The translations under genes and the position numbers were made by a program. From positions 31,930,001 to 31,994,000 of the forward strand of contig OZ241830.1 in NCBI GenBank assembly GCA_965202585.1: 64,000 bases of DNA, in the 5' to 3' direction. This DNA comes from Thalia democratica. Lineage: Eukaryota. Shown here piece after piece: positions 9,984 to 58,336 of this stretch (the stretch's first letter is position 1; the number at the start of each line of letters is the position of its first letter). The notes under the pieces were generated by a model. That model ran no database searches. It saw nothing but the letters and a program-made list of their open reading frames with translations, and was not told where the DNA came from.

Positions 9984-10633
9984 TGTAACCGTCATCAATA
10001 ACGATGTTGTTAGGTTGGTTTAGCTGCTCTTAAATAAGATAACAAGAAGTGGTTATTTAAAGTATTACAGACGTTCAGATGGAACGCAGGCTTAATTTGA
10101 TACACTAGTACTTAATATAGAAACAATGCTAAAAACTAGTTATAAGTGCACGTTTTATATATTTACAAGATTAATAAAAGCATTGTGAAATAAGTGAAGT
10201 AGATGTAAGAAAACAAAGTGCTTTAAACAACTACCAACAACTTCTTTAAGAGTCGCGTAAGCACGCTAACTAAATGATAAACATTCTCTTGAATATGTTT
10301 AACATTGAAAATGGACTCGACGATAAAGTTTTCTATCCTCGTTTAATTAACACAAGTCTTCAATATGCTTCGTTCGCCTTGCTGGCTCTCTCGCCTCTCC
10401 GTTGTTGTGCTGTTTCCACGTCGTTGTGTAAGTTCTCTCCCCCGGCAGTAATCCGCCCGACTCGCGTCTGCAAGCCAAGTTTTAAACTCTTTCTCTCAAA
10501 TTTACTTCACGCTTCTTTTTCTCATTTTCTATTCTTAATACCAGTTGTGACGTCACTGAAAACATTGAAATTCTTTAACTTTAACTCTTCTGATATAAAA
10601 CGAAACATAAAATGTAATGATTGGTTCGTTACA
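9984..10633 (-). repeat. 3' LTR of copy 1
   Basis: TGTAAC..GTTACA termini; about 19 differences from 16846-17494 counted by eye. Confidence 0.92.
10548..10555. promoter_or_regulatory. CRE/ATF palindrome TGACGTCA in the LTR U3 (also at 17410-17417, 51621-51628, 58251-58258)
   Basis: Exact consensus within the 10-bp palindrome GTGACGTCAC, present in all four LTRs. A minus-strand CCAAT lies near the LTR start. Function is inferred from the motif only. Confidence 0.4.
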
Positions 10634-10655
10634 TTTTCTTTTGCTTATTTTTTTT
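10634..10655 (-). other. Polypurine tract of copy 1
   Basis: The minus strand reads AAAAAAAATAAGCAAAAGAAAA directly before the 3' LTR TG. A similar tract lies at 51707-51730. Confidence 0.65.
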
Positions 10656-11540
10656 ACTTTTTTTCTGCTTTTTTTTAATATTTTTCTAAATCTAGTCTCT
10701 TACCTTAACTCTCTATTTTGTCTTCATTTTAAGATTTTTTTTTAATTCTATTTCTGTCTAGTGTCAGTTTCTATCAACATTTTTATACTTAAGATTGTTA
10801 TATCAACATAACCTTTTAATGTATCAATAATCATTTACGTCTATCATGTAGTACCTGTACCCACAAACTCCTTACGAAACCATTAGTAGAATAAAATAAA
10901 AGAAAAAAGATAAAAAAAACAAGTAAATAGAAAAATATTGGTACATAAGTTAATTATTTAACAAGCAAACGGTATTTTCAATTACATGTGTATATACTTT
11001 TCCTAATTAAAATTAATTAATTAAGTCAGTAGTTCATAGTTTAAAAAAAGTTATAATTTTGAAATTAAAAAACTGTACATTGATGTTGGTGCTTAGAATA
11101 TAAAATTTTATTGAAATGTTAACAAAAAGTTAGTGAGTAATGGATTAGAACACGGCAAAAAATTACAAACCATAACAAAGCATTTTCTGAAGTAAAACTA
11201 ATTAATTGATTCAGTAATTCATAATTTCTATAAATTAAGTTAAGTGTTACAAAAACTATAAACATAGACAATCATTGTTTAACATACATAATTACAATTA
11301 ATTTTTTTAATTGCCTGTTTGCAGAGCAGGATTTATGTAAGTAAAAGTGTAAGTAGAATTAAAATTCTTATTTTGAGCTAATTAAATCTTAAAAAAATGA
11401 TGTTTATGTTACTTTAAAATTGAATGTTATTTAAAATTAAGTAGTTAAAAATACATAAAAAACTTATAACAAAACCTAAATATTGTTTTTTCATTTTTTT
11501 CATGCAATAAACACAATGTAAGTTTTTTCGTGAATTCCTC

Positions 11541-12226
11541 GTCAACTTCTTCGTCTCTCCATCATCTTCTATGTCAACTTCTTCGTCTCTCCATCATCTT
11601 TCATGTCAACTTCTTCGTCTCTCCATCATCTTCTCCTTGTCAACTTCTTCGTCTCTCCATCATTTTCCATGTCAACTTCTTCGTCTCTCCATCATCTTCC
11701 ATGTCAACTTCTTCGTCTCTCCATCATCTTCCATGTCAACTTCTTCGTCTCTCCATCATCTTTCATGTCAACTTCTTCGTCTCTCCATCATCTTCCATGT
11801 CAACTTCTTCGTCTCTCCATCATCTTCCATGTCAACTTCTTCGTCTCTCCGTCATCTTCCATGTCAACTTTTTCGTCTCTCCATCATCTTCCATGTCAAC
11901 TTTTTCGTCTCTCCATCATCTTCCATGTCAACTTATTCGTCTCTCCATCATCTTCCATGTCAACTTCTTCGTCTCTCCATCATCTTCCATGTCAACTTCT
12001 TTGTCTCTCCATCATCTTCCATGTCAACTTCTTCGTCTCTCCATCATCTTCCATGTCAACTTCTTCGTCTCTCCATCATCTTCCATGTCAACTTCTTCGT
12101 CTCTCCATCATCTTCCATGTCAACTTCTTCGTCTCTCCATCATCTTCCATGTCAACTTCTTCGTCTCTTCATCATCTTCCATATCAACTTCTTCGTCTCT
12201 CCATCATCTTTTTGTCAACTTCTTCG
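11541..12226. repeat. 32-bp minisatellite (~21 units) inside LTR element copy 1
   Basis: Unit atgtcaacttcttcgtctctccatcatcttcc; period 32 (e.g. 11701 to 11733). Confidence 0.95.
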
Positions 12227-15200
12227 TTTTTTGATTTATTTTTTATTTTCAGTTAATTTGGTTTGTTGCTTGTGCCGTTTTCTTCGTGATCCTGGAACTT
12301 AAATATCTTTAAGCTCTCATTTTTTTAAATGTTTTTATTAGAACTTGTTTTGACTTATAACAATGATAATGAATTATTCTTAGTATATATTTATAAAAAG
12401 GCTTATTTCATTTCTATTAAATAAAATACTGTTAAGAATTTTAAAAATAAAATTGAACTTAAGCAGACAGCAGGCTATATCATTAAAACTTAAGTTTAAA
12501 TTTCTATATACAAGTTGTGTTACTTAAAAAGTTACTTTTTTTGTGTCAGTACTTAAGCATAAGTAGTTCGACTACCTTTCCAGTTAATATTAGTGGAGAT
12601 GTTTACCCTTCCAAACTTTAAAAAAATCTTTTCCTCACATAAACTAATAAATATTACTGAGTTCAGCCAACGAAGTTCGTATAAAATATTGATAAATTGA
12701 GAAGTTTCATTGTGTAGTGTCACGGGAATAGAATGCGTGAGCGTTCCACGACTTTTATGTTATGGCACAGGATTGATAAATACGTAACTTTGACGTGCAC
12801 ATTTCGTTTTCTTTGTTTGGTGACACTGGAGTAGTAGGTGATTTCTGATCACAAAATTAGTAATGTGTATCCCACAATTACTGAATAAAAAAATTAATGA
12901 AAAACTCTCGCAATAACAAGTTTAATAATAAAAATGCTTCTGACCCTAAAAATTGCATGTCTTTTATGCGAAAAGAAAGTACCTTTATCATAGTTTTGAA
13001 CAAAGTATTTGCGCTTTCCAGACGTCTTAAAAACTGTATTAGAATAGCTCTTATCCCTGGTCGTTTAATAACTTTTAGTTTCTTATTTGTTTAAAGTTTA
13101 AATTTTTCAGTTTTAATGTGAAAACAAGTCTGCTGCTGATTAATGCCTGATTTTGAAATAATAGTACCAAAAAGTATATTATTTTACCTGATTATATTTG
13201 AAAAATTATACACACAATTGCTTGTCATAAAACGTTAAGTTTTTTATTTGAAAATAAGAGTTTTTAAAGTTAGAAATTCAAAATAATATAGTTTGTAAAC
13301 TTATTACTACTAAATCACTTGACAAACCACTATCTTTTAAAACACTTCTGTATGTTTTGATTAACTAATAAATAATTATTTTTTTATAAGCTTTAACACT
13401 CGAAGTTAATATATTTATTAAAATAATTAAAGTTATTTAAGACTGAATGTAAATAACAGTCTTAAACTATATATATTTCTTTAGTTGAATATTTGTAATA
13501 TTTATTAGAATTAGTTGACCTATAAATTAATAGAGTAACAAAGACATAGAGTAACTCGGATGTAAATTTACTGTTACAATTTTTGACATTTAACTTAATA
13601 ATGTTATCACTTGACAATTTTTAAACACTTGATTTGTGGTTATTCTACTCGCTTAAAATGAAAAACAAAATTAAGTTTATATTATTTTTTGTTGATATAC
13701 AATGCACTAAGATTAATATAATTAAATAAATATTGAAACTTTTTTTTTTTTATAGTTTTATTATATTTACTTACAAAATTCATTTTTTATTTTAGAAAGT
13801 GTGTTTGGCGTTCGTAAATGTTATTTTTTGTAATATACAACATTTTTAAAGACAAAAGCAGACAATGCTTTAAATTAAACAATCAAAAGTTTTAGGAATC
13901 ATTACATACTTATAAATTCTCTAAAGGAAAATTTTTAAACGTAATTATATAATTGAACTTGACATTGACTTTGAAAACAAAGATTTAAGATTCATTTTTG
14001 CCATTTTACGAGCATTAAGAGAAGCTGAAAATTCACTGTTAACATGCCATGCGAAGTTTCTTACGAGTTAAGTAGTTAAACTAGCAATTTAAAAAGGACT
14101 AGAATATTTTCCGCTTTCTTAAAAACCAAAATTATATATTATAAAATCAAATAATGTAGACAATATATATATACAAGTAAAAAAAATAAAGATAATTAAT
14201 ACGAAAACTACAACAGAAAGACTATACATATAGTAACTCTAAATCATAGAATACTTCTAAGTATGACATAATGAGAATAAACTTAATAAGACAACGAAAG
14301 TTCTACATCGATGCTCAAACCCATAAAATGTCTTATGCATAATATCAACCTTACTGCTACCGCAAAAAATCACAACTGCTCGTGAAGCTACAATCTAAAG
14401 TTTATATAAATATTGTTTGTACACTTTTTAAGCAAACATTAGTGGATCTTTTTAGGCATTAAGTAAGATTGTTAAAAATAGATAAAGCTACTTATACTTT
14501 ATGTTTTTTTATAATTCATTTTAATAAACTAAATTAATAAGCTATTACAGCAAAGTATTTATTATACTGTTTAAATAATTTATTGAAATTAATTAAATGA
14601 TAACAGTTTTTTTAATCTATGTTTACAGAAATATGTTTGATAGTTATTGTATCATTATAGCAATTAATAGTTTAAGATTAATTGTATTATATAACTTATT
14701 TTACTGAAAAATCGTTAAAACTTCATCAATAGATATAGGTCACTATAAGTAAGCAAAACAACTTTAAATCTACAGAGAAAACTAATTATTAAACTACAAG
14801 TTTGCCGAACAATGTGACGTAATATATCAATAATTCGAATTAAGTATTTCTTTTCAAGTTATGTTACAAGAGAACAATAAGACAATTAGTTAATAAAATT
14901 TTTGTTTTTGGTAAAAAAAACTTCAAAGTATTTTTAGCTTCCGTTTTGCTATCGATTTATAGTCAAACGTCAAACTAAATAAATTAAAGCCAGATGTTAT
15001 GAAAATTTAACAATTCTTATTTACTCCTAACGTTTCAGATTTTATCGATAAAAAAAAATCCACTGAAATTTAAATTGATAAGAAAGTTTAAATTTCACGA
15101 CAGTAACTATAAAAATTATCAGATGCTTGTAAAACAAAAACAGCAAGTTTTATTTTGTTATTGCTTGAAAAATTTATTTTTATCAATTTTTTATGTGAAA

Positions 15201-16827
15201 ATTTTAAAAAACTGTCAACCGGTACTCCTATTTGTTTTTGATTAAAGTACAATTAACTGCTAAAATTTTATCTAAAAAAATTTAATTTTTATATGACGGG
15301 AATTTATCAGTAACAGGTGCGGTTTAAATAATTTAAACTCCTTCCGTTGTGTTAACAAGCTTTAAAAACATTGTTAAAAAGCGATTTAAAGTTAAGCTAT
15401 AAGATTGTATCGTAATAGTTTATAGTCTGAAAACAAATCTTCTTAAAGTTATTGAGTATTATGTAGTTATTATACTTAAACTGTAGTTATAAAACACTAA
15501 AACATTCTAAATTTCTTATACTCCTAGTGAAAAACACATTAACAATAATAACAACAACAAAATAGTACACATGACATAGTTAACTAGGTTGTAAATGAAA
15601 ACAACAAAACTTTTTTTTGATATAATATTTGCAATTTTTTTATGGTTTTTTGTCATATCTTTGAATTTAATAACTTTTTGTTATTTATTTTACAAACTAA
15701 AGAAATGAATATAAAATAACTTAAAAAACTAGTATGTGGTAGTAACAAACAAAAAAAAAATCTTTAATTGTTTCGATATTTTGAAAAAAAAAATCAACTT
15801 AATTTTAAGTATAACTATGCAAATTAATCCATATTAATAGTTTCCGAGTAAAACGGGGAAAATTTATAACCTAAACCGCAAACACTTGAACAAATTTAAT
15901 TTGCACTCAAGTCAGTTCTGAATGTTACTAAACTACACATTATGTCAATTCTAATTAAAAAGTTATTTTATACATGTTATAACCTCACTAGTTTAATTAT
16001 TGTTATATTAAATACTTCTTGTTTAAAATTATTGTTTTATAGTTATGATGTAAAACACAAACAAAGTATAAAAAAAATCAAAAACCTAATTTAATTGATT
16101 GAAGTTTTAATCTTGAAACCAACAATTATTAGGTGAATTCATTACTGTAAGTATTAATCGAAAAATAGGATTTGTTTCAAACGAAGGTTTACTTTAGATG
16201 TCTTTAGAATTTGTTTTGAAAATGTTTTGTCTATTTTTAAAATCAAAATATTTAATTTTTAACCAACTTAAATAACATAAATGAAACCATATAAATTTTA
16301 CATTTCTAACTTATAAGTTAACATTTTAAGGTATTATAATATAAAATATTTAAATATGTAAAAAATTGAATACTTATTATTTATGTAATTATTGTAACAA
16401 GTAGTGGTGCCTGAAAAAGATTAAACAAGTTTTAGTTAATGGCAAAAAATGTATTTAATGTTTATAAAATGTTGAAATAGTAACTAACAGTTAGATTGAT
16501 GTACATCCGAATGAGCTGAATTATTCAAAAAACATCTTTTTATGGTTGAAGATGTTTGGTCAAACCTATAAAAAATCCCAGTCACAACCTCTTCGTGGCC
16601 GTCCATTCACAATTTTCTTCAACGAAATCAGTTGGTTTCCTTGGTTCCCATGTCCAGTCCCTGGCCGGGTCGGTTGTCCATTCCTCTGAGCGGTTCCACT
16701 GTCCATCTTTTATGTTCTAGGTTGTCAGTTTTTGCGTAGTTTGATGTTCATTTGCTTGTGGTTCGATAGTTATTTGTCTTCGTGGGCGCATTCGACTATT
16801 AATCTTAAAGGTGATAGGTTTGTAGGC

Positions 16828-16845
16828 CGTTGTGGAGTTACGCCA
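16828..16845 (-). other. Primer-binding site of copy 1 (TGGCGTAACTCCACAACG)
   Basis: Starts with TGG immediately after the 5' LTR CA on the minus strand. It is identical in copy 2 (57681-57698). The priming tRNA is not identified. Confidence 0.75.
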
Positions 16846-17494
16846 TGTAACCGTCATCAATAACGATGTTGTTAGGTTGGTTTAGCTGCTCTTAAATATG
16901 ATAACAAGAAATGGTTATTTAAAGTTTTACAGACGTTCAGATGGAACGCAGGCTTAATTTGATATACTAGTACTTAATATAGAAACAATGCTAAAAACTA
17001 GTTATAAGTACACGTTTTATATATTTACAAAATTAATAAAAGCATTGTGAAGTAAGTGAAATAGATGTAAGAAAACGAAGTGCTATAAACAACTACCAAC
17101 AACTTCTTTAAGAGTCGCGTAAGCACGCTAACTAAGTGATAAATATTCTCTTGAATATGTTTAACATTGAAAATGGACTCGACGATAAAGTTTTCTATCC
17201 TCGTTTAATTAACACAAGTCTTCAATATGCTTCGTTCGCCTTGCTGGCTCTCTCGCCTCTCCGTCGTTGTGCTGTTTCCACGTCGTTGTGTACGTTCTCT
17301 CCCCCGGCAGTAATCCGGCCGACTCGCGTCTGCAAGCCAAGTTTTAAACTCTTTCTCTCAAATTTACTTCACGCTTCTTTTTCTCATTTTCTATTCTCAA
17401 TACCAGTTGTGACGTCACTGAAAACATTGAAATTCTTTAACTTTAACTCTTCTGAAATAAACGAAACATAAAATGAAATGATTGGTTCGTTACA
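16846..17494 (-). repeat. 5' LTR of copy 1
   Basis: Direct repeat of 9984-10633 with TGTAAC..GTTACA termini. Confidence 0.92.
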
Positions 17495-18554
17495 CTGCAC
17501 ATTAGACTTGAACTTAAATAAGTGGTAAGCCTCCTAAAAACGAAAGTTTGAGTAGTTACTTCAGCAGTAAAGATTAGGCTGCCTCTACTTAAAAGCATTA
17601 CAAAGTAAAACAAGGGAAGACCAATTGCAGGCAGCATTGTTAATACATCTAATCCAAGCAGATCTGTTAAAATGGACAAGTTGACTAAACTTTTTAAAAG
17701 CAATAGACTAAAACAAAGTAGTGGAAGTCGTTCGGCTAAAAAATACACAAAATTATAAAGTAGAAAGATATAGAAATCCTATGAAGAAAAGTTTTATTTC
17801 CTCTTTAAAACACCCGAATGATTTTACAAAAAAGAATGTAAACAAAAGTGAGTAGAAGAGAAAACTAGGTATTTAGTGAGTAAAAATTCAGTAAATAAGT
17901 TTGAAGACTTTGTTATTAACTATTACAACAAAACCACATAACATCAAAAGGTGGAAACATAAAAGTTAATTACATAGCAAATAAAAAGTCAAACAAAAAG
18001 AAGTTCAAGAAGTAACGATGAAGCACCTAATAATGTTTATGAAAATGTTCATGTAAACCTTGTGTTATTGTACCTGACTGTATTTGCAATAATGCTGATA
18101 CTATTTCAACTTCAATGTGAACCATACTATACAACACAAACATAATAGTTAAATTAAAAAAAATAACATAAATCTTTAAGTACTCAAAGTAATTTTGTGT
18201 AGTTGTTAAAAACTTCTATTTTGATAAAAATATGTTTTTTTTCGGACAGATTTCGAATTTAGCTGCCTTTAAGCTTACAAAATGTTTAAACTTCACGAGC
18301 AAATAAGAAAAATAAAACTTTTTTAATCCTTGAAAATATGCAGAGTTCATTTAATTCACTAAAACATTTTATATTAGTTTAACAAATAGTTCAAATTAAG
18401 ATATAAATTAATACAAAAGTTTTAAAATACTATCTTAAGGTGATATTTAGAGTTGCTAACAACAGCTGCGAACAATAGTTATTTATAAAGTACTCTAAAT
18501 TAAAAATAACAGTCATATTATCGTTTAAAATTTATTTTGTACAAATTACGTTAA

Positions 18555-19613
18555 CTAAATAATTTTTTCACGCAAATACCTAGCAAACTTTGAAAACTTC
18601 TCATAGTCAACACCAGATGGTTCTATTTCAATAAGAAATCTCGGTTTGACCAAGCTATCATCTGCAACATACTCGTCTACCAAACTGAGACCCGGTATGT
18701 TTTTGTGATATCTTCGTTCGGTGTCTGCTTTCATTTTACTGTCTGGACTGTCCTGATGCATGTGTTTGCAAAACGGGTGTTTTGGCGCTGCGTAGTTATC
18801 ACTCAGCTTGTGGTAGCTCTCATACTTTTCAATTTTTAACCTCTTCGTTTTAGAAACTTCGTTTACAAAAACGTATGTTTCAATGGAGTTGCTCCTGCAA
18901 AAAGTTTCAATCCAGTTATTTAGAGTTTTCCTTATCGAGTACATCACAGCTATGTCTATCGACTCTGTCATATAAACTCCCCTTCCAAAGCACCCGTAAG
19001 GCGAATTTTTGTAACCTTTGCTCAAAATCTTTTTGGTGCATTCCAAGCTGGTGCCGTGCAGCATCATGTAGTTGTCGAACTTATAATCGTCGGAATCGAA
19101 GCCGTCGCAATTTACCTTGTAAACTTTCGCATGTTTCAGGTCAACAAATGAATCCGGTTCTTCGCAACGTGCTTGTTCCAAGTATTGCTTTATCAAGGCG
19201 TATTCACTAGGGTTTGTTTGTGAGTCAATAGGCATCAGTGTAAATTTTTGAGCTGTTTCATCATCCTCTTGCTGATATTTTGCTAATACATTGTCAACAG
19301 ATACTGCATTCTTTATAAACTTTGAACATTCAAAAGGTTTTAAAGTAGGTTTGAGTTTTGCAGCATCTTTTTTCTTATTATCTTTTCTTTTGCGGCAGCG
19401 TCTATTTCTTTGCTGAGCAGGAAGCATTTCACTCCTTTGTTTACTCCTGTTTTTGTCAACTCCTTTTACCTGTTTTTTTACTGGTGCAGAATTGCTCTTG
19501 CCTCTGCATATCTCTCTTTTTCTTAGTTTATTACGAACATAACTTTGAGCTGAGGCATAATCGTCACCACGTTTTTCAGCTCTAATTGTAGTTTTCTTGT
19601 TTTTATCAGCACC
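18555..19613 (-). CDS. PARP-like ADP-ribosyltransferase, catalytic domain with basic N-tail, paralog 1
   Basis: Motifs LHGT, FGRGVY, VMYS, FVNEV and VDEYV..KPRFLIE match the PARP H-Y-E signature. The frame stays open and homologous to paralog 2 for 62 codons upstream of the ATG at 19427, back to an acceptor-like tttcttttcaaag|GGT at 19613. The true start is uncertain. Confidence 0.8.
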   Translation of the reverse strand, partial: GADKNKKTTIRAEKRGDDYASAQSYVRNKLRKREICRGKSNSAPVKKQVKGVDKNRSKQRSEMLPAQQRNRRCRKRKDNKKKDAAKLKPTLKPFECSKFIKNAVSVDNVLAKYQQEDDETAQKFTLMPIDSQTNPSEYALIKQYLEQARCEEPDSFVDLKHAKVYKVNCDGFDSDDYKFDNYMMLHGTSLECTKKILSKGYKNSPYGCFGRGVYMTESIDIAVMYSIRKTLNNWIETFCRSNSIETYVFVNEVSKTKRLKIEKYESYHKLSDNYAAPKHPFCKHMHQDSPDSKMKADTERRYHKNIPGLSLVDEYVADDSLVKPRFLIEIEPSGVDYEKFSKFARYLREKII

Positions 19614-20186
19614 CTTTGAAAAGAAACTATTTGTTATTTTATAATTACGTCAAAGCATTTTACAGTCAGTAATTAAACTTAGTTTATGTTTTGTAATTAT
19701 CTATAATCTATATTTAAAACATTTTTATATCTTTAAAAAAGTTGTGAAACAAATTATTATTTCAAGTAATTAAAAAAAAAGTAAGTTAATGTATTATGAC
19801 ATTTAATTTAATTTCATCATAATGAAAATAGAATTTATTTAATTGACACGATAACTCCTTTTATCGGAGTTGAAAATTTTTGAGGCAAAAAGCAAGGCTG
19901 GTTGCAAACAATGACTTAGGTTCTTTTAAACTTATGAGAGCAATAAATTGTATGAACAAAAAGATGAAAAAAAGTATAATGATTGAATATTTAATAATAT
20001 AAAAGTTAAAGCAAAACAGTTTGAAAAAAATATATAACCAAAAAAAAACAAGTAGTGTTTAATACTAGGTTTTTATTTTCTGTTTTTTGTATCCAAAATT
20101 TAGTAATTTAAAGTAATTTTGTTAGAATATGTCAAGTTGATATAATATTTTAAACAGTTTGTCTTAAGAAAAACAGTGAGCTTAAA

Positions 20187-22072: not shown

Positions 22073-22083
22073 AACGCTTGTTT

Positions 22084-46370: not shown

Positions 46371-47119
46371 TACAAGTAATAAAAAATATAATTTGATTGA
46401 GTTATTTTAATGACTTTATTTCATACTTTAAATTAAAGTGCTTTAGATCAAACCCTGGAGAAAATGTCCGAAAACTTAAAAGACTGAAACTATCATGGAC
46501 AATTTTAATCCTGAATGAGAGTTTTTTGCTTAAAAGTCAATAGGATAAATGGCAGGTTTAGTTGTTACATCTTGTAATTATTTTTTTTCATTGTAGTTAG
46601 TGTTTCTACTCTCGTTTTGTAGGGACGATTACTAGTGGTGTAATGGAATAGAAATTAGCAGGTCTGAATTTAACTGAAATGGTAGTTTTTTATATTACAA
46701 AACCTAATACTACGGTTTGATCTTCAATGACATCGTGATTAAAGTAGTGGAAACTCACTTCTTTATTTCAAAAAATGTTTAATGTTGTTTCTTCTTTAGG
46801 AGGTATAGAGACAATGGCGTGAAAACATCATAAGGTTTTTATACTTCTTTAATACATACAACTCAGTTTGTCAAACTTTAAGTAAAGTATAACATTTTAT
46901 GTTTTGGTTTTAAGAAAACAAATAAAGAGATCCCAACTACTGGAGGAGAAATAATGAATTTATTCTTACAAGAACTTGTTTTACAAACTAAAAACAGTAT
47001 ACTATACTGAAGTAAAACAAAATATAAAGTAATTTTGAATATAATAAATATAATAATAATAAAAAATATTTCATTACACTCTGAATTTTCAGTGGTTATA
47101 AACAGGTAAATATTTTATT

Positions 47120-48403
47120 GGGTGGGTGTCACTTTTGCACGAGCGTCACTTTTGCACGAGCGTCACTTTTGCACGAAGGGTCACTTTAGCACGGAGAGTC
47201 ACTAATGCACGGTGTCACTTTTACACGAAGAGACACTTTTGCACGATCAACACTTCAGCACGAGGGGTCATTTTTCCAAGTGTCACTTTCGCACGGTTTA
47301 TACTTTCACGGATATGCTTATGAACTGCGAAAACTTTAAACAATCTGCTAATTTTGAACCGAGTTTCACTTTTGCACGCTTCTAATTTTTATTTTCCCAA
47401 ATATAAATTTAAATAAATTGTTTTTTTTTTCAACTTAAATAATGTTTGCTTTTAAACGCAATTTGCTTTTACTCTACTAGTGATAAGTCCTTTTTCAATG
47501 TGTTTAATGATTATTCATCTGGCCAGTCTATTGTTAATGTCCTTGAAGCGTTAAGTTTTTATTTTTGTTGTTAGTCAATTCATTCAAATTCTTGATGTTA
47601 ATTGTTCTACATAAAAGCGTAAATAAGTATAAGTTCGTGGCTTAAATTTTGCTTTTTATGTTAACCTATTAATTTTGTATCAAGGTATGTTTTTATCTTT
47701 GTTTTAATAAATAAACTTTTTGTGTTAATTTTATTCTTTCTGTATGTGTCTTTAAGTTAAAGTGGACTATGTTTTGATGCCTAGGTCCATCATATGGACA
47801 ATAAACTTGTAATCGTTTAGTAAAATATATAAAAAGTCATTGTTGTTAATAATATATTAAAATTCAAAATAAACTAGAACAATTTACTTCCACTTAAAGT
47901 ATTTTTTTCTCTTAGTTTCTAAACAAATTATTTTTTTGTCCGTGGTATAAATCTTTTATAAGTAATTTTTCTTCTATCTTTTCATTAGTTTGTTTCTAAC
48001 ATTAACTTTTACTGTTCAATATTTTAAATCTTTCATTTTTTGCCTTTAATATAAAAATAGTATAAAATTTTAGTTTTCAGTTTCTTTTTATGGTACAGAT
48101 TAAGTACTAGCAAAAAAAACTTTTAATCGGCCTGCATGCAAAAGTGATGTTCTGTGCAAAAAAGTCATCGTGCCAAAATGTCGCTGTGCAAAAATGTCAC
48201 CGTAAAATATGACGTTGTTAAAAAGTATCTTTGTGCAATATACTGCGGTAAAAATTGTCATCGTGAAAAAATGTTGCCGTAAAAAAAATGACCCTGCGTG
48301 CAAAAGTGACGCCGTGCAAAAGTGACCCTCCCAGCAAAAGAGTCGCCGTGCAAAAATGTCCCCTCGTGCAAAAGTGATGCTCGTGCAAAAGTGACCCGTT
48401 CCC
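47120..48403. mobile_element. Foldback/Mutator-like element with 16-18 bp subterminal tandem repeats
   Basis: Inverted arrays of gtcacttttgcacgagc at 47128-47295 and 48130-48397; GGG termini; 9-bp TSD tattttatt / tattttctt (8/9). Confidence 0.85.
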
Positions 48404-48727: not shown

Positions 48728-49873
48728 CTAAATAATTTTTTCACGCAAAAACTTGTTAAAGTTCAAATACTTCTTATAGTCAACGCCAGACGGTTCTATT
48801 ACAATGAGAAATCTCGGTTTTACCAAGCTGGCATCTGCAACATATTCATCCACCAAACTGAGACCCGGTATCTTTCTGTTATATCTTCCTTCGGTGTCTA
48901 CTTTCATTTTCCTGTCTGGACTGTCCTGATGCATGTGTTTGCAAAACGGGTGTTTCGGCGCTGCGCAGGTATTACCGAGCCTGTGGTAGCTCTCATACTT
49001 TTCAGTCTTCAACCTCCTCGATTCAGAGACTTGGTTGACAAAAATGTATGTTATGATTGGTTTACAAAAAGGTTGATTCCAGTTATTTAGAGTTTTCCTT
49101 ATCGAGTACATCACAGCTGTGTCTAACGACTCCGTCATGTAAACTCCCCTCCCAAAGCACCCGTAAGCCGAATTTTTGTAACCTTCATTCAAAATCTTTC
49201 TGCTGCATTCGAGGCTGGTGCCGTGAAGCATCATGTAATTGCCGAACTTATAGTCGTCGGAGTCAAAGTCGTCGCAATTTACCATATAAACTTTTGCATG
49301 TTTCAAATTAACAAATGACTCCGGTTCTTCGCAACATGCTTGTTGCAAGTATTGCTTTAACAAGGCAAGCTTACTAAAACTTTTGAGTGTATCGAAAGGC
49401 ATCAGTGTAAACTTTTGAACTGTTCCATCATTTTGTTGCTGATATTTTGCAGCTACATTGTCAGCAGATACCGCATTCTGTGTGAATTTTGAACAACCTA
49501 AAGGTATCAAAGTTGGTTTGAATTTTGCAGCACTTTTTCCTTTATTGATTTTTCCTCCGCGGCGATGTCTGTATTTCTGTTTAGTAATACGCGTCTCACT
49601 CCGCTTTTCACTCCTGTTTTTGTCATTTCTTTTTACCTGATTTTTTACTGGAGCTGAACCGCTGTTTTCATGGCATATTTTTACTTGCTTTAGTTTGTTA
49701 AGAACATCGTCGACTTGAGCTGAGGAATTTTCGTCACAAAGTTTTTTAGCTCTTACTGCAATTTTCTTATTTGTATCAGCACCAACTTTCCTCTTCTTTG
49801 TAGCATCAGCTGCACACGTTTTACTGTTGTCTAATACTTCAGAGTAATCCATTACACTTATTTTAATACTCAT
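48728..49873 (-). CDS. PARP-like ADP-ribosyltransferase, catalytic domain with K/R-rich N-tail, paralog 2 (381 aa)
   Basis: Uninterrupted ATG-to-TAG ORF. LHGT / FGRGVY / VDEYV give the H-Y-E triad. It is colinear with paralog 1. Confidence 0.88.
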   Translation of the reverse strand: MSIKISVMDYSEVLDNSKTCAADATKKRKVGADTNKKIAVRAKKLCDENSSAQVDDVLNKLKQVKICHENSGSAPVKNQVKRNDKNRSEKRSETRITKQKYRHRRGGKINKGKSAAKFKPTLIPLGCSKFTQNAVSADNVAAKYQQQNDGTVQKFTLMPFDTLKSFSKLALLKQYLQQACCEEPESFVNLKHAKVYMVNCDDFDSDDYKFGNYMMLHGTSLECSRKILNEGYKNSAYGCFGRGVYMTESLDTAVMYSIRKTLNNWNQPFCKPIITYIFVNQVSESRRLKTEKYESYHRLGNTCAAPKHPFCKHMHQDSPDRKMKVDTEGRYNRKIPGLSLVDEYVADASLVKPRFLIVIEPSGVDYKKYLNFNKFLREKII

Positions 49874-50723
49874 AATGTTAATTATTATTCATTAAAACTC
49901 TGAAAAAATTAGTATTATATTCTTTAAATTAAATTTAAGAGGTTTTTATTTAAGTTATTTCTTATTTTGATAATTGTTTTTTTTTTTTAACTCTTTATTT
50001 TGTAGTGTTTTTCCTATTTGTTTTATTTTTTTGAAAAGTTTTCTGGTATTTAACTAGTCCAACATTATTAAAAGACAATATTTATTTTTTTTTTAAATAC
50101 CTCAATGTTTAACTAAGTTTTAAAACTAGAAGTTTGTTGCACACTGAATGAAATATAAAAAATAATTTAGCTATAGTCATTTATTTAACTTGTAATATTA
50201 ACAATTAAAAATAAGCAATAGCAATTGAAATTTACATTCTAATGCATAAATTAAACGCCTAAAACATAGATAAAACTTTAAACTACCGAACAAATAAATA
50301 TTTTTAGAATGTATATATGTATTAAAATACAACATATTAAAAAAAATGTTTTATTATTTTCTCTGACAAATTCTTGCGAAAAATTTTATATTTCTCTATT
50401 TCTAATAAAACATTTATCTCATTTCAATAGTTTAAAAAAAATTTAAATAATAATACATTTCAGAGGTATAGTAAATATAAAAGTTAGTTATAGTATAGCT
50501 TGATGAAAACACGCAAGTTTTTTTATAAAGCTTAAGAGAGTGAATTTCTTTATTTAAATAAAGTTTTTATAAAAATACTGTTATAAAAAAAACGATAATT
50601 AGTAATAACTGGAATGGGTGTACGACAAAGGGTGACAATTTAAACTGAGACATTTTAAAATGTTAAAACTTTTTATAACCGGCCATAAATTATAAATAAA
50701 AGATATTTAGAAATAAATACGTC

Positions 50724-50856
50724 TGTAGGTTTAGGTAATATCTAAATAAATATATCTTTCTTGGTTGAGTTTATTCACAAACTAATTACAAGAATGATAA
50801 AGTCTGTAATGCAAAACATAATGAAAGCTAGGTAAATACTTATACATTTCCCCCCA
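50724..50856 (-). repeat. Short putative 3' LTR (50724-50846) and PPT (50847-50856) of the Gypsy element whose gag/pol remnants lie at 62816-64000
   Basis: The minus strand reads ..GGGGGAAA|TGTATAAG..AATAAA..CCTACA, with TGTA/TACA termini. The partner LTR would lie outside the window, so this is unverified. Confidence 0.5.
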
Positions 50857-51067
50857 GATTTTTTCTAAGTAATAGATAAAGCGATACATTAAACTAGCGA
50901 AATAAAATAATTTCAAAACAATTTGTTACAACTTAAACACAGACTTTAACTCTAAAAATCAACGAAATTGAACTTAAAATGACAAAAACATTTAAAAATT
51001 ACGATTAACTTAGTTAACTGTTAAATAAAAATGTTGAAAAAGACTACAATTTAAACGAACAAACTGT

Positions 51068-54000
51068 TGTAACCGTCATCAATTACGATGTTGTTAGGTT
51101 GATTTAGCTGCTCTTAAATAAGATAACAAGAAACGGTTATTTAAAGTATTACAGACGTTCAGATGGAACGCAGGCTTTGTTTGATATACTAGTACTTACC
51201 ATGAAAATAATAATATAAAAACTAGTTATTAGTGCACGTGATTTTATATACAACATTAACAAACACATCGTGAAATAAGTGAAAGAAAAGAAACTAAAAC
51301 CAATGACTTCTGATAAGAGCCCAGTAGGCACATATACTAACTACTAAACATGTTGTTGAAATGTACAGAAAATAGACTGGACGATCAATTCTTCTATCCA
51401 CATTCTATCAACAAAACCCTTCTCGATTGTTCATCATACGATTCGCAATCCTATCGTCAACACGTTGTTGTGTGCGTTCTCTTCCCCGGCAGTTATACGC
51501 CGACTCGCGTCTCTCCCGTCACTAATCCGCCGACTCGCGTCTGCAAGCTAAGTTTTAAACTCTTTCTCTCAAATTTACTTCACGCTTCTTTTTCTCATTT
51601 TCTATTCTCAATACTAGTTGTGACGTCACTGAAAACATTGAAATTCTTTAACTTTAACTCTTCTGAAATAAAACGAAACATAAAATGTAATGATTGGTTC
51701 GTTACATTTTCTTTTGCTTAATTTTTTTTTTTTTTTTTTTCTTGCTTTTTTTTTATATTTTTCTAAATCTAGTCTCTTACCTTACCTCTCTATTTTGTCT
51801 TCATTTTAAGATATTTTTTTTTAATTTCTATTTCTGTCTAGTATCAGTTTCTATCAACATTTTTATGCTTAAGATTGTTATATCAACATTACCTTTTAAT
51901 GTATCAATATTCATTTACGTCTATCATTTCGTACCTGTACCCACAAACTCCTTCCGAAACCATTGATAGAATAAAAAAAAGAAAAAAGATAAAAAAACAA
52001 GTAAATAGAAAAAAATTAGTGAGTAATGGATTAAAAACACGGCAAAAAATTAAAAGCCTTAACAAAACATTTTCTAAAGTAAAACTAATTAATTGATTCA
52101 GTAATTCATAATTTGTAAGAATTAAGTTTGGTGTTACAAAAACTATAAACATAGACAATCATTATTTAACATACATATTACAATTAATTTTTTTATTTGC
52201 CTGTTTGCAGAGCAGGAGTTATGTAAGTAAAAGTGTATGTAGAATTAAAAATCTTATTTTAAGCTAATTAAATCTTTAAAAAAAACTGATGTTTATGTTA
52301 CTTTGAAAATTGAATGTTATTTAAAGTTAAGTAATTAAAAAATTACATAAAAAAACTTATAACAAAACCTAAATACTGTTTTTTTTTTCATTTTTTTGAT
52401 GCAATAAACTCAATGTAAGTTTTTTTTGTGAATTCCTCGTCAACTTCTTCGTCTCCACCCATCATCTTCCATATCAACTTATTCGTCTCCACACATCTTC
52501 CATGTCAACTTATTCGTCTCCACACATCTTCCATGTCAACTTCTTTGTCTCCACACATCTTCCATGTCAACTTATTCGTGTCCACACATCATCTTCCATA
52601 TCAACTTATTCGTCTCCACACATCATCTTCCATATCAACTTATTCGTCTCCACACATCTTCCATGTCAACTTATTCGTCTCCACACATCATCTTCCATAT
52701 CAACTTATTCGTCTCCACACATCTTCCGTGTCAACTTCTTTGTCTCCACACATCATCTTCCATATCAACTTCTTTGTCTCCACACATCATCTTCCATATC
52801 AACTTATTCGTCTCCACACATCATCTTCCATGTCAACTTCTTCGTCTCCACCCATCATCTTCCATATCAACTTATTCGTCTCCACACATCTTCCATGTCA
52901 ACTTATTCGTCTCCACACATCTTCCATGTCAACTTTTTTGTCTCCACACATCTTCCATGTCAACTTATTCGTCTCCACACATCATCTTCCATATCAACTT
53001 ATTCGTCTCCACACATCATCTTCCATGTCAACTTCTTTGTCTCCACACATCTTCCATGTCAACTTATTCGTCTCCACACATCATCTTCCATATCAACTTA
53101 TTCGTCTCCACACATCATCTTCCATATCAACTTATTCGTCTCCACACATCTTCCATGTCAACTTATTCGTCTCCACACATCATCTTCCATATCAATTTAT
53201 TCGTCTCCACACATCTTCCATGTCAACTTCTTTGTCTCCACACATCTTCCATGTCAACTTATTCGTCTCCACCCATCATCTTCCATATCAACTTATTCGT
53301 TTCCACACATCTTCCATGTCAACTTCTTTGTCTCCACACATCATCTTCCATATCAACTTATTCGTCTCCACACATCATCTTCCATGTCAACTTCTTCGTC
53401 TCCACACATTATCTTCGTTTTTTTGATCTATTTTGATTTTCAGTTAATTTAGTTTGTTGCTTGTGCCGTTTTCTTCGTGATTCTTGAACTTTAATATCTC
53501 TAAGCACTCATATTTTTAAAATATTTTTATTAGAACTTGTTTTGACTTATAACAATGATAATGAATAAAAAGGCTTATTTCATTTCTATTAAATAAAATA
53601 CTGTAAAGAATTTTAAAAATAAAATTGAACTTTAGCAGACAGCAGGCTATATCATTAAAACTTAAGTTTAAATTTCTATATACAAGTTGTGTTTCTTACT
53701 AAGTTACTTTTTTTGTGTTAGTACTTAGACATAAGTAGTTCGACTATCTTCCAGTTAATATTACTAGAGCTGTCTACCCTTCCAAACTTTAAAAGAAATC
53801 TTTTCCTCACATAAAATAATAAATATTTCTGAATTCAGCCAACGAAGTTCGTATAAAATGTTGATAAATTGAGAAGTTTCATTATGTAGTGTCACGGGAA
53901 TAGAATTGCGCCCTCCAGACTACTAACTTTTAGTTTCTTATTTGTTTGATTTTATTTATTAAATGTTTTTTGACAACAAGTCTGCTGCTGATTAATGCCT

Positions 54001-57000
54001 TATATTGAAATAATACTACCAAAAAGTAAGATATTACCTGATTATATTTGAAAAACTGTACACACAATTGCTTGTAATAAATCGTTTAGTTTGTATTTGA
54101 AAATAAGATTTTTTAAAGTAAGGAATTCAAAATAATCTAGTTTCTAAAACTTATTACTACTAAATTACTTGATAAATCACTACTTTTAAAACACTTCTGT
54201 ATGTTTTATTAGCTAATAATTAATTACTTTTTAGAGCCTTAGCACTTGAAGTTAAAATATTTTTTTTTAATAATTAAAGTTATATAAGACTGAATGTAGA
54301 TTACAATCTTAAACTATTTATGTTTCATTAGTCGAATATTTGCAATGTTTTAGAATAAGTTCACTTTAAAATTTTTCAATTTGTAAATTGATATAGTAAC
54401 AAAGAAATAGAGTAACTCGGATGTTAATTTACTTTTATAATTTATCATATTTAACTTAATATCATGACTTGACAACTTTTATACACTTGATTTGTGGTTA
54501 TTCTACTGGCTTAAAAAAACTATTTTTATATTATTTTTATGATATACAATGCATTAAGATTAATATAATTAAATGAATACTGAAACTTTTTCATTTTTTA
54601 TAGTTTTATTATATTTACTTACAAATACACTTTTTAATGTAGAAAGTGTGTTTGGCGTTCGTAAGTTAATTTTTGTAATATACAACATTTTTAAAGACAA
54701 AAGCAGTTAATGCTTTAATTTAAACTATCAAAAATTTAAGGAAACTTTACATACTTATAAATTCTAACGGAAAACTTCAAACAGTAATTATGTAATTGAA
54801 CTTGATATTAACTTTAATAACAAAGATTTAAGATTCATTTTTGCCATTTTACGAGCAGTAAGAGAAACTGAAAATTCACTGTTAACATGCCATGCGAAGT
54901 TGCTTACGAGTTATGTAGTTAAACTAGTAATTTTTAAAAAAAGGACCAGAGTTTTGCGCTTTCTTAAAAACCAAATTTCTATATTATAAAACCAAATAGT
55001 ATCAACAATATATATACAAGTAAAAAAGAATAAAGATAATTAATACGAAAACTACAACAGACAGACTATACATATAGTAACTCTAAATCATAGAATACTT
55101 CTAAGCATGACATAATGAGAATAAACTTAATAAGAAATTTGTAGTTTAAGACAACGAAAGTCCTACATCGATGCTCAAACCCATAAAATGTCTTATGCAT
55201 AATATCAACCTTACTGCTACCGCAAAAAATCACAACTGCTCGTGAAGCTACAATCAAAAGTTTATATAAATATTGTTTGTACACTTTTTAAGCAAACATT
55301 AGTGGAATTTTTTAGGCATTAAGTAAGATTGTTAAAAAATAGATAAAGCTACTCATACTTTATATTTTTTTATAATTCATTTTAATAAACTAAATTAATA
55401 AGTTATTAAAGCAAAGTATTTATTTTATTATTTAAATAATTTATTTATATTCACTAAATGATAACAGTTTTTTTTAATCTATGTTCACAGAAATATGTTT
55501 GATAGTTATTGTATCATTATAGCAATTAATAGTTAAAGGTTAATTGTATTTTGTAACTTTTTTAATGAAAAATTATTATAACTTTATCAATAGATATAAA
55601 TCACTATAAGTAATCAAAATAGCTTTAAACCTACAGAGAAAACTAATTATTAAACTACAAGTTTGCCGTACAATGTGACGTAAAATATCAACAAATTGAA
55701 TTAAGTATTTCTTTTCAAATTATGTTACAAGAGACTAATAAGACAATTAGTTAATAAAATTAAGTGTTTTGGTAAGAAAAACTTCAAAGTATTTTTAGGT
55801 TCTGTTTTGTTATCGATTTAAAGTCAAACGCCATACTAAATAAATTAAAGCCAGATGTTATGAAAATTTAACAATTGTTATTTACTCCTAACGTTTTAGA
55901 TTTTATCGATAAAAAAAATAAAGTCCAACTGAAATTTAAAATGATAAGAAAGTTTAACTTTTACGACAGTAACTATAAAAATTATCAGATGCTTGTAAAA
56001 CGAAAATAGCAAGTTTTATTTTGTTATTGTTTGAAAAATTTATTTTTGACAATTTTTTATGTGAAAATTTTCAAAAACTGTCAACCATTACTCCTATTTG
56101 TTTATGATTAAAGTACATTTTTACTGCTAAAATTTTATCTTAACAAAATTTGATTTTTTATACGACGGGAATTTTATCACAAACAGGTGCAGTAAATAAT
56201 TTAAACTCCTTCCGTTGTGTTAATAATCTTTAAAACATTGTTAAAAAAAGATTTAAAGTTAGGCTATAAGATTGTATCGTAATAATTTAAAGTTTGAAAA
56301 TAAACATTCTTAAAGTTATTAAGTATTGTGTAGTTTATTATACATAAATTGTAGTTAGAATATACTAAAATATTCTAAACTTCTTGTATTCTTAATGAAA
56401 ATCACACTAACAACATAATAATACACATGACATAGTTAATTAGTTTGTAAATGTAAACAACAAAACTTTTTTTTTATTTTTTTTATTATATAATATTTGC
56501 AATTTTTTTATGGTTTTTTGTCATATCTTTTATTTTATGAACTTTTTATTATTTATTTTACCAGCTAAACAAATGAAAATAAAATAACTTAAAAACTAGT
56601 ATGTGGTAGTAACAAACAAAAAAAACCTTTAATTGTTTCGATGTTTTGAATAAAAATAATTTTAAGAAAACTATGCAAATTAATCCATATTAATAGTTTC
56701 CGAATTAAATGGGGAAAATTTATAACCTAAACCGCAAACACTTGAACAAATTTAATTTGCACTTAAATCAATTCTGAAAGTTACTTAAGTGCACATTATG
56801 TCACTTCTTATACAAAAAGTTATTTTATAAATATTATAACTTCACTTGTTTAATTGTTATTATCTTAAATACTTCTCGTTTATAACTATTACTTTAGAAT
56901 TACGATGTAAAACACCTACAAAAAATTAAAGAAATATCAAAAACCTCATTTATAGAAATTAAGGTTTTATTATGAAACCAATAATTATTAGGTGAAATCA

Positions 57001-58336
57001 TTACTGTTAGTAATATTCGAAAAATAAGACTTTTTTCAAACTCAGGTTAACATTAACTGTTTTTTGAATTAATTTCGAATATGTTTTGTTCATTTTTTAA
57101 ATGAAAATATATAATTTTATTAGACTAAATACAACAAAAGCATATAAGTTTTAGATTTTCAATTTATAAATTAACATATTAAGCTATTATATGATTGTTC
57201 AACAACATAAAATATTTAAATATTTTTTATTTGTTTACTTATAATAACAAGTAGTGATCGTTAATTGAAAAAAAAATCTGTAATTAATGACAAAAATGTA
57301 GTTAATGTGTATTTTTATGTTAAAATAGTAACTAACAGTTAGATTGATGTACCTCCGAATGAGCTGAATTATTCAAAGAACATCTCTTCATGGTTGAAGA
57401 TATCTGGTCAAACCTCAAAAAAATCCTATTTACAACCACTTCGTGACCGTCCATTCACAATTTTGACTAGCATTCACAATCTCTTCATATCCCCGAAATC
57501 GGTTGGTTTCCTGGATTTTTATGTCCAGTCCCTGGCCGGGTCGGTTGAACATTCCTCTGAGCGGTTCCGCTGTCCATCTTTTATGTTCTATAGTTGTCAG
57601 TTTTTGCTTCGTGGTTCAATAGTTATTTGTCTTCGAGGGCGCATTCGACTCTTAATCTTAAAGGTGATAGGTTTGTAGGCCGTTGTGGAGTTACGCCATG
57701 TAACCGTCATCAATTACGATGTTGTTAGGTTGATTTAGCTGCTCTTAAATAAGATAACAAGAAACGGTCATTTAAAGTATTACAGACGTTCAGATGGAAC
57801 GCAGGCTTTGTTTGATATACTAGTACTTACCATGAAAATAATAATATAAAAACTAGTTATTAGTGCACGTGATTTTATATACAACATTAATAAACACATC
57901 GTGAAATAAGTGAAAGAAAAGAAACTAAAACCAATGACTTCTGATAAGAGCCCAGTAGGCACATATACTAACTACTAAACATGTTGTTGAAATGTACAGA
58001 AAATAGACTGGACGATCAATTCTTCTATCCACATTCTATCAACAAAACCTTCTCGATTGTTCATCATACGATTCGCAATCCTATCGTCAACACGTTGTTG
58101 TGTGCGTTCTCTTCCCCGGCAGTTATACGCCGACTCGCGTCTCTCCCGTCACTAATCCGCCGACTCGCGTCTGCAAGCTAAGTTTTAAACTCTTTCTCTC
58201 AAATTTACTTCACGCTTCTTTTTCTCATTTTCTATTCTCAATACTAGTTGTGACGTCACTGAAAACATTGAAATTCTTTAACTTTAACTCTTCTGAAATA
58301 AAATGAAACATAAAATGTAATGATTGGTTCGTTACA
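51068..58336 (-). mobile_element. Non-autonomous LTR retrotransposon (LARD-like), copy 2, 7269 bp
   Basis: LTRs at 51068-51706 and 57699-58336 (about 4 differences by eye). 4-bp TSD CTGT at 51064-51067 and 58337-58340. PBS at 57681-57698. The interior is colinear with copy 1 and has no gag/pol. Confidence 0.93.
52439..53417. repeat. 31/34-bp mixed-unit minisatellite (~30 units) inside LTR element copy 2
   Basis: Units catgtcaacttattcgtctccacacatcttc (31 bp; 52501 to 52532) and a variant with an extra cat (34 bp). It occupies the same position as the 32-bp array of copy 1. Confidence 0.95.

Follow-up and report, generated by a model that had tools for sequence, protein, structure and literature searches.

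The 64,000-nt window of the Thalia democratica genome analysed here carries two insertions of an LTR retroelement family, family A, which is without gag, pol and env. Taken together, the sequence evidence makes it probable that this is a young, gene-less family whose interior came from a spacer like that of a coding Ty3/gypsy family, family B, whose RNA is packaged, reverse-transcribed and integrated by B proteins, and whose reverse transcription is primed by tRNA-Asn through an antisense of the whole tRNA. Large non-coding LTR elements are already known; what is new here is the primer design, together with direct fossil evidence of the A/B partnership.

Two insertions and the wider family

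As an earlier note on this DNA had claimed, the window holds two LTR elements with 4-bp TSDs, both on the minus strand (Table 1). They have the termini TGTAAC..GTTACA and colinear interiors of 81-86% identity, each with its own 31-34-bp tandem array. The LTR pair of copy 1 is 2.77% divergent (18 mismatches and 1 gap) and that of copy 2 is 0.47% divergent (3 mismatches and 1 gap), in keeping with the proposal that copy 2 is a recent insertion. Between copies the LTRs match at 519 of 685 columns (93-96% at the ends, 54-69% in the middle; 79% by BLAST), so that each pair is indeed closer to itself than to the other. The flanking DNA of the two copies is unrelated, which together with the different TSDs confirms two independent insertions; segmental duplication of a single insertion is ruled out by the differing TSDs and flanks and by the 79% identity between the LTRs of the two copies.

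Table 1 Features of the two family A copies (positions in the window)
Feature	Position	Strand	Remark
Copy 1, whole element	9984-17494	minus	7,511 bp
Copy 1 left TSD	9980..9983		CTGC
Copy 1 3' LTR	9984..10633	minus	650 bp
Copy 1 polypurine tract	10634..10649	minus	purine-rich but interrupted
Copy 1 module homologous to B pol-env spacer	11121..16531	minus	AT-rich; element positions 964-6374 vs B copy L076
Copy 1 tandem array	11541..12227	minus	32-bp unit, 21-22 units, GA-rich on RNA strand
Copy 1 central zone	14014..15765	minus	recent A/B exchange
Copy 1 remaining leader	16560..16775	minus	GC-rich
Copy 1 antisense tRNA-Asn(GUU) leader	16776..16845	minus	
Copy 1 leader, pairing to tRNA nt 1-10	16776-16785	minus	
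Copy 1 leader, pairing to anticodon/D arm	16786-16804	minus	19 bp with G-U
Copy 1 leader, pairing to tRNA 3' end	16840-16845	minus	6 bp
Copy 1 5' LTR	16846..17494	minus	649 bp
Copy 1 right TSD	17495..17498		CTGC
Copy 2, whole element	51068-58336	minus	7,269 bp
Copy 2 left TSD	51064..51067		CTGT
Copy 2 3' LTR	51068..51706	minus	639 bp
Copy 2 polypurine tract	51707..51722	minus	
Copy 2 module homologous to B pol-env spacer	51990..57390	minus	element positions 947-6347
Copy 2 tandem array	52439..53416	minus	31/34-bp units, 30 units
Copy 2 central zone	54859..56669	minus	83-99% to B per 100 bases (5' flank 70-76%)
Copy 2 antisense tRNA-Asn leader	57629..57698	minus	two substitutions in pairing boxes
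Copy 2 5' LTR	57699..58336	minus	638 bp
Copy 2 right TSD	58337..58340		CTGT

The earlier note had treated the family as two insertions; it is far larger, with 45 exact A LTR-PBS junctions genome-wide against 0 in the control. Two LTRs (634-711 bp) are present in 27 of 47 A sequences, 21 of these 27 having a matched 4-bp TSD, and with LTR divergences of 0-3.1% (median 0.63%) the family is, judged by its LTRs, young. Tandem array units number a median of 30 in A and 12 in B, and array size showed no relation to the age of the LTRs (rho 0.12). Contigs of X1 and X3 span the A interior in many variants and X4 has only 4 short pieces, a pattern that speaks neither for nor against expression.

The antisense leader and its tRNA

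A tRNA ending GTTACGCCA had been put forward as the primer. No tRNA gene ending in GTTACG was found: the genome had 0 matches to a tRNA ending GRGTTACG, none of the 11 matches to one ending TTACG (107 in the control) had a tRNA-like T stem by eye, and ARAGORN found no tRNA gene in the window. The most likely primer is instead tRNA-Asn, to which three aberrant insertions (L205, L068 and L161) point, since in each of them mature tRNA-Asn(GUU) has been newly reverse-copied, in one case behind an A LTR. In L205 an A LTR and an exact 18-nt tRNA-Asn complement are flanked by a TSD; in L068 a B LTR with ~55 nt of tRNA-Asn complement is fused onto a box of A, and L161 is similar. Each of the three has a misreading at the base facing tRNA position 58, as is expected of a modified mature tRNA (m1A58). 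Families C and E are also tRNA-Asn-primed, and either could help A too.

In the GC-rich leader, where the earlier note had suspected a cis-acting signal, the 70 bases behind the A LTR form a degenerate antisense of the whole tRNA-Asn, in which 6 bp pair with the 3' end, 19 bp with the anticodon/D arm and 10 bp with the 5' end, the complementarity lying mostly outside the tRNA 3' end. Among 12 tRNAs, antisense tRNA-Asn aligned best (z 5.4-6.8 over the stretch that follows the first 12 nt), scoring 56 against a maximum of 43 among 368 control windows, and the computed duplex amounts to -69 to -75 kcal/mol, compared with -12.5 when the 3' end pairs by itself. The copy 2 leader taken by itself was non-significant in an ungapped pairing test (222/1000 shuffles). 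Counting against this reading, a tRNA-corrected PBS occurs behind just 1 A LTR genome-wide (2 pattern matches, 1 of them an A element), A otherwise keeping its mismatched PBS.

Coding relatives carry a second box as well, of 10 nt pairing to tRNA-Asn 39-51 in families B and C and of 10-14 nt pairing to tRNA-Arg(CCT) 42-55 in D and G (0-7/1000 shuffles across the four). As read from these sequences, the second box follows the primer tRNA across B, C, D and G; in family E no significant second box was found (586/1000 shuffles). In families B-G the further tRNA box sits inside GAG.

We suggest that the 10-bp and 19-bp boxes of A would open the acceptor stem and anticodon/D arm of the tRNA, making the 6-bp 3' pairing enough for priming. 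More doubtful is a fuller version, in which a whole-tRNA trap replaces the canonical PBS, unzips tRNA-Asn via its 5' half for six-bp priming, out-competes the helper for primer and evades 3' tRNA-fragment silencing, while the expanded GA-rich array boosts packaging and the gB envelope carries A between cells. It is unlikely that A rides B with tRNA-Asn while the antisense tRNA is a neutral read-through fossil of which only the 6-bp end matters. The three aberrant insertions show that read-through tRNA-Asn copies behind LTRs do occur, and copy 2 moved recently despite two box changes; moreover, paired (diversity 0.025) and unpaired (0.032) sites of the 70-nt block are nearly equally conserved, which does not point to selection on pairing as such. 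However, the block as a whole shows about one third of the diversity of the remaining leader (0.025-0.032 vs 0.082), and the 3' end and T arm, which fresh read-through copies first, are its most decayed parts, whereas the distal boxes are nearly perfect. The 10-nt 5'-end box is still kept in an old group with 74% LTR identity (L038), and the second box of the coding relatives changes along with the primer tRNA.

Family B, the shared spacer and the A interior

Family B is an 18.5-kb Ty3/gypsy element with pol domains in the order PR-RT-RH-IN, which fits this assignment, a 6.7-kb pol-env spacer, an extra 694-aa ORF (ORF694), for which no Pfam family was found, and, as its third ORF, a 581-aa env with a signal peptide, a C-terminal membrane helix and a weak PF00606 match. 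While a sequence search of the PDB with env gave 0 matches, the top Foldseek matches of its predicted structure (pLDDT 70.5, pTM 0.39) were to herpes gB (E 1.5e-18, TM 0.26); as modelled, the B envelope is herpes-gB-like, with a class III fusion fold. A metagenome scan with B Gag confirmed nothing. TSDs match in 11 of 12 B LTR pairs, and 10 of the 12 pairs are <0.7% divergent.

The earlier note had proposed to look for a helper with the LTR ends and PBS of A. Those of B differ (TATAAC..GTTATA, with PBS string TGGCGTCCTC), and the LTRs of the two families can hardly be aligned, their score of 63 falling within the shuffle range (maximum 64). The LTRs of most known autonomous and non-autonomous partners are not so unlike each other, and those of ETn and MusD are alike.

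Sequence comparison shows homology between the interior of A and the B pol-env spacer, and no spacer similarity to families C-G was found. In trees of both spacer flanks A and B form separate clades on long branches, while in the centre B nests within A (an AU test for a single B clade gave p 0.032, a weak result); on these trees the centre was swapped recently between A and B. The two families were active over one common recent period. Furthermore, all four A/B chimeras with both flanks read are bounded by matched TSDs (ATAG, ATAA, AAAT and AAGC; chance 0.0087 each), three of them having one end from A and the other from B; the count leaves out the chimera-like loci C1100 and C2:38.59 Mb. These TSD-bounded chimeras make B the likely helper of A and, with the absence of gag, pol and env from A, uphold the proposal of mobilisation in trans. 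A would have derived from a B relative by loss of gag-pol and env-ORF694. Its RNA would be transcribed on the minus strand from the A 5' LTR and, to judge from the chimeras, co-packaged with B RNA, and the A ends, whose 6-bp inverted termini differ from those of B at one base, would be accepted by B integrase. Spread of A between cells via the B envelope is possible.

There is a slim chance that A is moved by an unsampled autonomous family with A LTRs (or by one of families C and E), and that ectopic gene conversion between genomic copies of A and B produced both the spacer they have in common and the chimeras. The nearly wholly different LTRs of A and B fit such a helper, and an existing insertion would retain its TSD under conversion; in addition, 40 of 416 LTR candidates were scored, in the assembly of one individual, which leaves room for an autonomous element that has A LTRs but a variant form of the PBS. 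Two long LTR pairs considered as autonomous A (C1:99.0 Mb and C2:15.9 Mb) were rejected, one being a duplicated fragment and the other an A element with a nested D-family element. Against this explanation, none of the 43 A junctions outside the window is followed by gag or pol within the up to 9 kb downstream of the PBS (B env follows in one), and 4 additional PBS-string matches showed no element and no pol. Families C-G lack the spacer similarity, and L068 and L161 join B to A via a fresh tRNA copy, a structure that only reverse transcription can make.

The interior was confirmed to hold no gag/pol remnant: 19 Gag, Pol, Env and extra-ORF proteins of six related families had no match in copies 1 and 2 (best E 0.055) and none at E<0.01 in the 27 two-LTR A copies. 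It is very improbable that the interior is instead a spliced accessory gene or a captured host gene, for although it is conserved colinearly across copies, and a block at 55050-55300 is 88-99% conserved with antisense stretches of 31-34 codons open in 22/23 and 19/23 A copies, 152 of 316 distinct indels are single bases and 44 are multiples of 3, codon periodicity was absent from 139 windows (best p 0.04), 26 of 27 copies have a longest sense ATG frame of 48-97 codons (that of the 27th being a microsatellite), and the 4 Rfam matches on copy 1 were all far under threshold. Self-folding of the leader was nothing unusual (z +1.3 for the whole copy 1 leader, and +0.1). Outside the array, 2/124 and 2/120 windows reached z<=-2.5, none common to both; the A array folds weakly and the B array does not.

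Comparison with known systems

In the type description of LARDs, RNA secondary structure is reportedly conserved in the interior; in the folding scans of A given above no strong conserved structure emerged. LARDs are large non-coding LTR elements, and family A resembles them as they are described in being large, LTR-flanked and multi-copy, with PBS, PPT, TSD and a non-coding multi-kb interior (PMC3532108, PMC2997562). It differs in its LTRs (0.64 kb, where those of the type elements measure ~4.4 kb; PMC3532108), its animal host and the identification of the origin of its interior and of a likely helper. The earlier note had presented LARD-like elements as mainly plant, a framing that overstates novelty, since mouse ETn and VL30 are well-known large non-coding LTR elements of animals (PMC6466679). 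Like ETn, described as derived from, moved by and outnumbering its coding relative MusD (PMC6466679), A is accompanied in its genome by a coding, less numerous relative, but here the pair is Ty3/gypsy rather than betaretroviral and the candidate helper retains env. VL30 and MLV likewise pair a non-autonomous element with an enveloped helper, VL30 being co-packaged (PMC6466679), whereas for A co-packaging is suggested by the four TSD-flanked chimeras, and A and B have kilobases of spacer in common, in which they recombine.

Family B resembles the gB-env Ty3/gypsy 'ancient errantiviruses' in its gag-pol-env order, Ty3/gypsy pol, gB-like envelope, youth and multiple copies, but its 18.5-kb length, 6.7-kb pol-env spacer and 694-aa ORF place it beyond the filter of that survey (a gap of at most 1 kb and a region of at most 10 kb; PMC13524379). 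The main text of that paper uses neither 'non-autonomous' nor 'intergenic', and among the places displayed from its supplements Asn occurs only in name matches (2/8 in the master table), rare tRNAs being pooled as 'others' (PMC13524379). As in the autonomous and non-autonomous partners SNRE/SARE of soybean and Dasheng/RIRE2 of rice, A and B recombine; in the accounts of those pairs LTRs are swapped or shared, whereas A and B exchange spacer and keep distinct LTRs (PMC4079214, PMC6894440).

The multipartite PBS described for Ty1 and Ty3 also combines a short 3' PBS with boxes to other tRNA arms, those of Ty1 lying inside GAG (PMC4974528), as in families B-G. A differs in adding 19-nt anticodon/D-arm and 10-nt 5'-end boxes to a 6-nt 3' pairing, colinear with the antisense tRNA, and the tRNA 5' strand, unpaired in Ty1, is predicted to be paired in A (PMC4974528). 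Among the titles on Ty1/Ty3/gypsy work listed by searches of open papers, none dealt with a whole-tRNA antisense leader, and these searches gave no counterpart to such a primer design.

PBS finders that use the last 12 tRNA bases would miss or mis-assign A, and surveys with a limited pol-env gap would miss B. One animal genome shows a large non-coding LTR element, its probable enveloped helper, its probable primer and their recombination products together. The A leader suggests that priming may rest mainly on the 5' half of the tRNA, and bears on minimal primer requirements and on evasion of 3'-tRNA-fragment silencing.

Two gene-less LTR elements and their family

Self-comparison of the window, which lies on contig C6 of an AT-rich 802-Mb genome, probably that of an animal to judge by its Kelch/BACK, PARP and RING genes, bore out the earlier note's description of two LTR elements with colinear interiors: both have LTRs of 638-650 bp, a tandem array and interiors that are 81-86% identical. 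As had also been claimed, the 4-bp TSDs differ and the LTRs are closer within than between elements, diverging by 2.77% in copy 1 and 0.47% in copy 2, against about 21% between the copies. From the order LTR-PBS-interior-PPT-LTR, transcription of both would run along the minus strand.

Features of the elements, related loci and surroundings (plain coordinates refer to the window; L, locus; C, contig; A, the gene-less family; B, the candidate helper; D, a related coding family)
Feature	Location or order	Strand	TSD	Basis
Copy 1	9984-17494	-	CTGC	self-comparison of window
Copy 2	51068-58336	-	CTGT	self-comparison of window
Antisense-tRNA blocks	16776-16845, 57629-57698
Single-frame RING, PARP, BACK-Kelch genes around elements	2838-3512, 18555-19649, 30229-31647, 48728-49888
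Repeat features in window	59014-59584, 62533-62723, 63377-63837, 47113-48399
Old A-type 5' LTR + leader (71-76%)	L037, L038, L039, L041, L042, L043, L049 (C6:7.6-9.7 and 68.8 Mb)
TRIM-like A derivative, 1.8 kb, full 18-nt tRNA-Asn PBS	L205:870-2649		CTAT
B spacer, 6.7-6.8 kb	between pol and env
B 581-aa ORF, then 694-aa ORF, then PPT	downstream of spacer
B 694-aa ORF after env	L078:2789-4870
Retrocopy of B env-ORF694 region	L158:1147-6776 (C9:47.136-47.142 Mb)
gag frame opening within 5' LTR, B's clade	L088:2082-2211; L103, L106, L109, L112
113-bp 5' duplication in B LTRs	L088:1419-1531
D-family element within A copy	L003/L004 (C2:15.89 Mb)
A copy within B copy	L085 (C9:24.27 Mb)
Chimera 1	A-LTR..env..B-LTR		ATAG
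Chimera 2	B-LTR..A body..A-LTR		ATAA
Chimera 3	whole B, then A body		AAAT
Chimera 4	A-LTR..B part..A body		AAGC

The 18-base LTR-PBS junction of this family, family A, occurs 45 times genome-wide against none in a reversed control. We retrieved 43 junction loci, all outside the window, of which 34 have the A interior, whole or partial, eight have a diverged LTR and leader only, and one is interrupted by a contig end. Two LTRs are present in 27 of the 47 sequences examined (matched 4-bp TSD in 21 of the 27), with a median pair divergence of 0.63% (range 0-3.1%; two pairs identical). Behind the PBS, the 43 loci outside the window yielded no gag or pol, and env once. The claim that the interior holds no gag/pol remnant was likewise upheld, since 19 proteins of six related families found no match in it and no codon periodicity was detected; 44 of its 316 indels are in frame. 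The A interior is non-coding, short exons possibly aside.

The old A-type LTR-leaders on C6 are segmentally duplicated and adjoin an antisense single-exon RING-H2 gene, with no 3' LTR found within 9 kb. At L048 and L056-L058, A copies follow one another head to tail, and their tandem arrays are very long. The window's PARP genes are two paralogues (82% DNA identity), and its repeats comprise 15-bp repeat arrays that are inverted and separated by 3 kb, a tandem repeat of 231 bp and inverted arrays of 16-18 bp, possibly DNA transposon ends.

Family B, a candidate helper

The A-interior search also matched copies without A LTRs. These constitute family B, a Ty3/gypsy element of about 18.5 kb with LTRs (TATAAC..GTTATA) of 635-795 bp, in which gag starts within the 5' LTR and its frame continues across the PBS, TGGCGTCCTC. 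The gag-pol frame (about 1,700 aa) encodes protease, RT, RNase H and integrase. A model of the 581-aa protein (pLDDT 70.5, pTM 0.39) has herpesvirus glycoprotein B (gB) as its best PDB matches (E 1e-18, TM just 0.26), with chu- and rhabdo-like glycoproteins ranking after, and suggests a gB-like fold; the 694-aa ORF has no Pfam match. Ty3/gypsy elements with gB-type env are an already described group, for which the survey in PMC13524379 gives an accepted pol-env gap of up to 1 kb, a limit that the B spacer exceeds. TSDs match in 11 of 12 B LTR pairs and divergence is below 0.7% in 10 of 12, and therefore A and B moved in the same period.

Several further features of this group were noted. The 694-aa ORF, with an Arg/Ser-rich start and a coiled-coil middle, is still open in most young copies. 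The L158 retrocopy, polyadenylated and lying inside an A copy, begins at the env ATG and stops at about LTR position 518; it records a subgenomic env mRNA as well as the B poly(A) site. Gag frames opening within the 5' LTR and running across the PBS recur in B's clade. Many B LTRs contain the 113-bp duplication, which has an internal PPT-like tract, and several copies pair a 680-bp 5' LTR with a 793-bp 3' LTR. At least six more gB-env Ty3/gypsy families are present (env 27-50% identical to that of B), with open frames in many copies, and one of these families has a 3-kb spacer and an additional 404-aa ORF.

An antisense-tRNA leader and its probable primer

Over their full length, the 70 bases behind the A LTR can be aligned to the antisense strand of tRNA-Asn, whose D loop has no counterpart; z is 5.4-6.8 when the first 12 bases are left out. 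This tRNA was the best of 12 and scored above 368 control windows; the boxes of copy 2 on their own fall below significance in an ungapped test. Predicted pairing comprises 6 bp at the tRNA 3' end, 6 bp in the variable region, 19 bp (including G-U) with tRNA 23-41 and 10 bp with tRNA 1-10, at a computed -69 to -75 kcal/mol, compared with -12.5 when only the 3' end is paired and with -68 in B over its entire leader. Across 24 copies, diversity is 0.025 at paired and 0.032 at unpaired positions of the block, 0.082 in the remaining leader and 0.066 overall.

The earlier note had predicted a tRNA matching the TGGCG PBS, a prediction that failed: no tRNA gene with that end was found in the genome. 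Genes for tRNA-Asn(GUU) are many, and match the PBS of B over 10 nt and that of A over 6 nt only. At L205, an A LTR is followed by an exact 18-nt complement of mature tRNA-Asn, flanked by a TSD; at L068 and L161, a B LTR is followed by 40-55 nt of tRNA-Asn complement and then A sequence. The base opposite tRNA position 58 is misread in all three, and such misreading is a sign of a modified tRNA as template. Taken together, these copies make tRNA-Asn most likely the primer of both A and B. The structure of L068 and L161 also indicates that B cDNA is able to switch onto A templates, and in L068 the switch falls exactly at A's anticodon box. One A element genome-wide has a PBS corrected to the tRNA sequence.

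Within gag of coding relatives, a second box tracks the primer (tRNA-Asn in families B and C, tRNA-Arg(CCT) in D and G) and is reached in 0-7 of 1000 shuffles; none was seen in family E by this test. Extra boxes as such are already known from the multipartite PBSs of Ty1 and Ty3 (PMC4974528). For a colinear whole-tRNA complement that seizes the 5' acceptor strand, with the 3' match down to 6 nt, we found no precedent in our searches of open papers.

Exchange between A and B, and a proposed partnership

Positions 947-6347 of copy 2 are homologous to the B spacer, at about 70% identity in each flank, rising to 83-99% per 100 bases across the central 1.8 kb. Trees were built for four segments (34-38 rows; loci covering at least 85% of the segment; three atypical A copies omitted; the row B_L085 of the 3' tree represents an A insert). 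In the flanks A and B form separate clades on long branches; in the centre B nests inside A, a constraint of B as one clade being weakly rejected (p 0.032), and some A copies shift position from segment to segment. Older B-type copies contain a larger part of the module, at 78-89%. The A and B LTRs align no better than shuffles, apart from a faint similarity of the leader and the U5 end, which scores 57 against a shuffle maximum of 51.

Each of the four A/B chimeras that could be read across both flanks lies between matched TSDs (probability of a single match by chance 0.0087). The established origin of such mosaics, as described in PMC6894440 and PMC4079214, is recombination in reverse transcription of co-packaged RNAs; the rival reading is that they arose through conversion of insertions already present. 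Separately, nested insertions of a D-family element in A and of A in B were observed.

In the mechanism that we propose, A would have descended from a B relative through loss of gag-pol and env. Its RNA, transcribed from the minus strand, would be packaged together with B RNA in B particles, the distal boxes of its leader would open the tRNA, and B integrase would insert it, giving the 4-bp TSDs. With a median of 30 units (n=27), the GA-rich array of A exceeds that of B (median 12 units, n=15; p 2e-4), and we speculate that the array promotes packaging. It is equally a matter of speculation that env carries A from cell to cell, and that the shortened PBS escapes 3' tRNA fragments, silencing by which is described for mouse ERVs (PMC7472051).

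By analogy, A may function in like manner to ETn and VL30, although the LTRs common with the helper in an ETn/MusD-type partnership are not a feature of A. Being large and non-coding it fits the LARD class, but loosely only, as it lacks the long LTRs. The novelty of family A rests on its whole-tRNA leader and on fossil traces that record a probable helper and its parasite with unusual directness.
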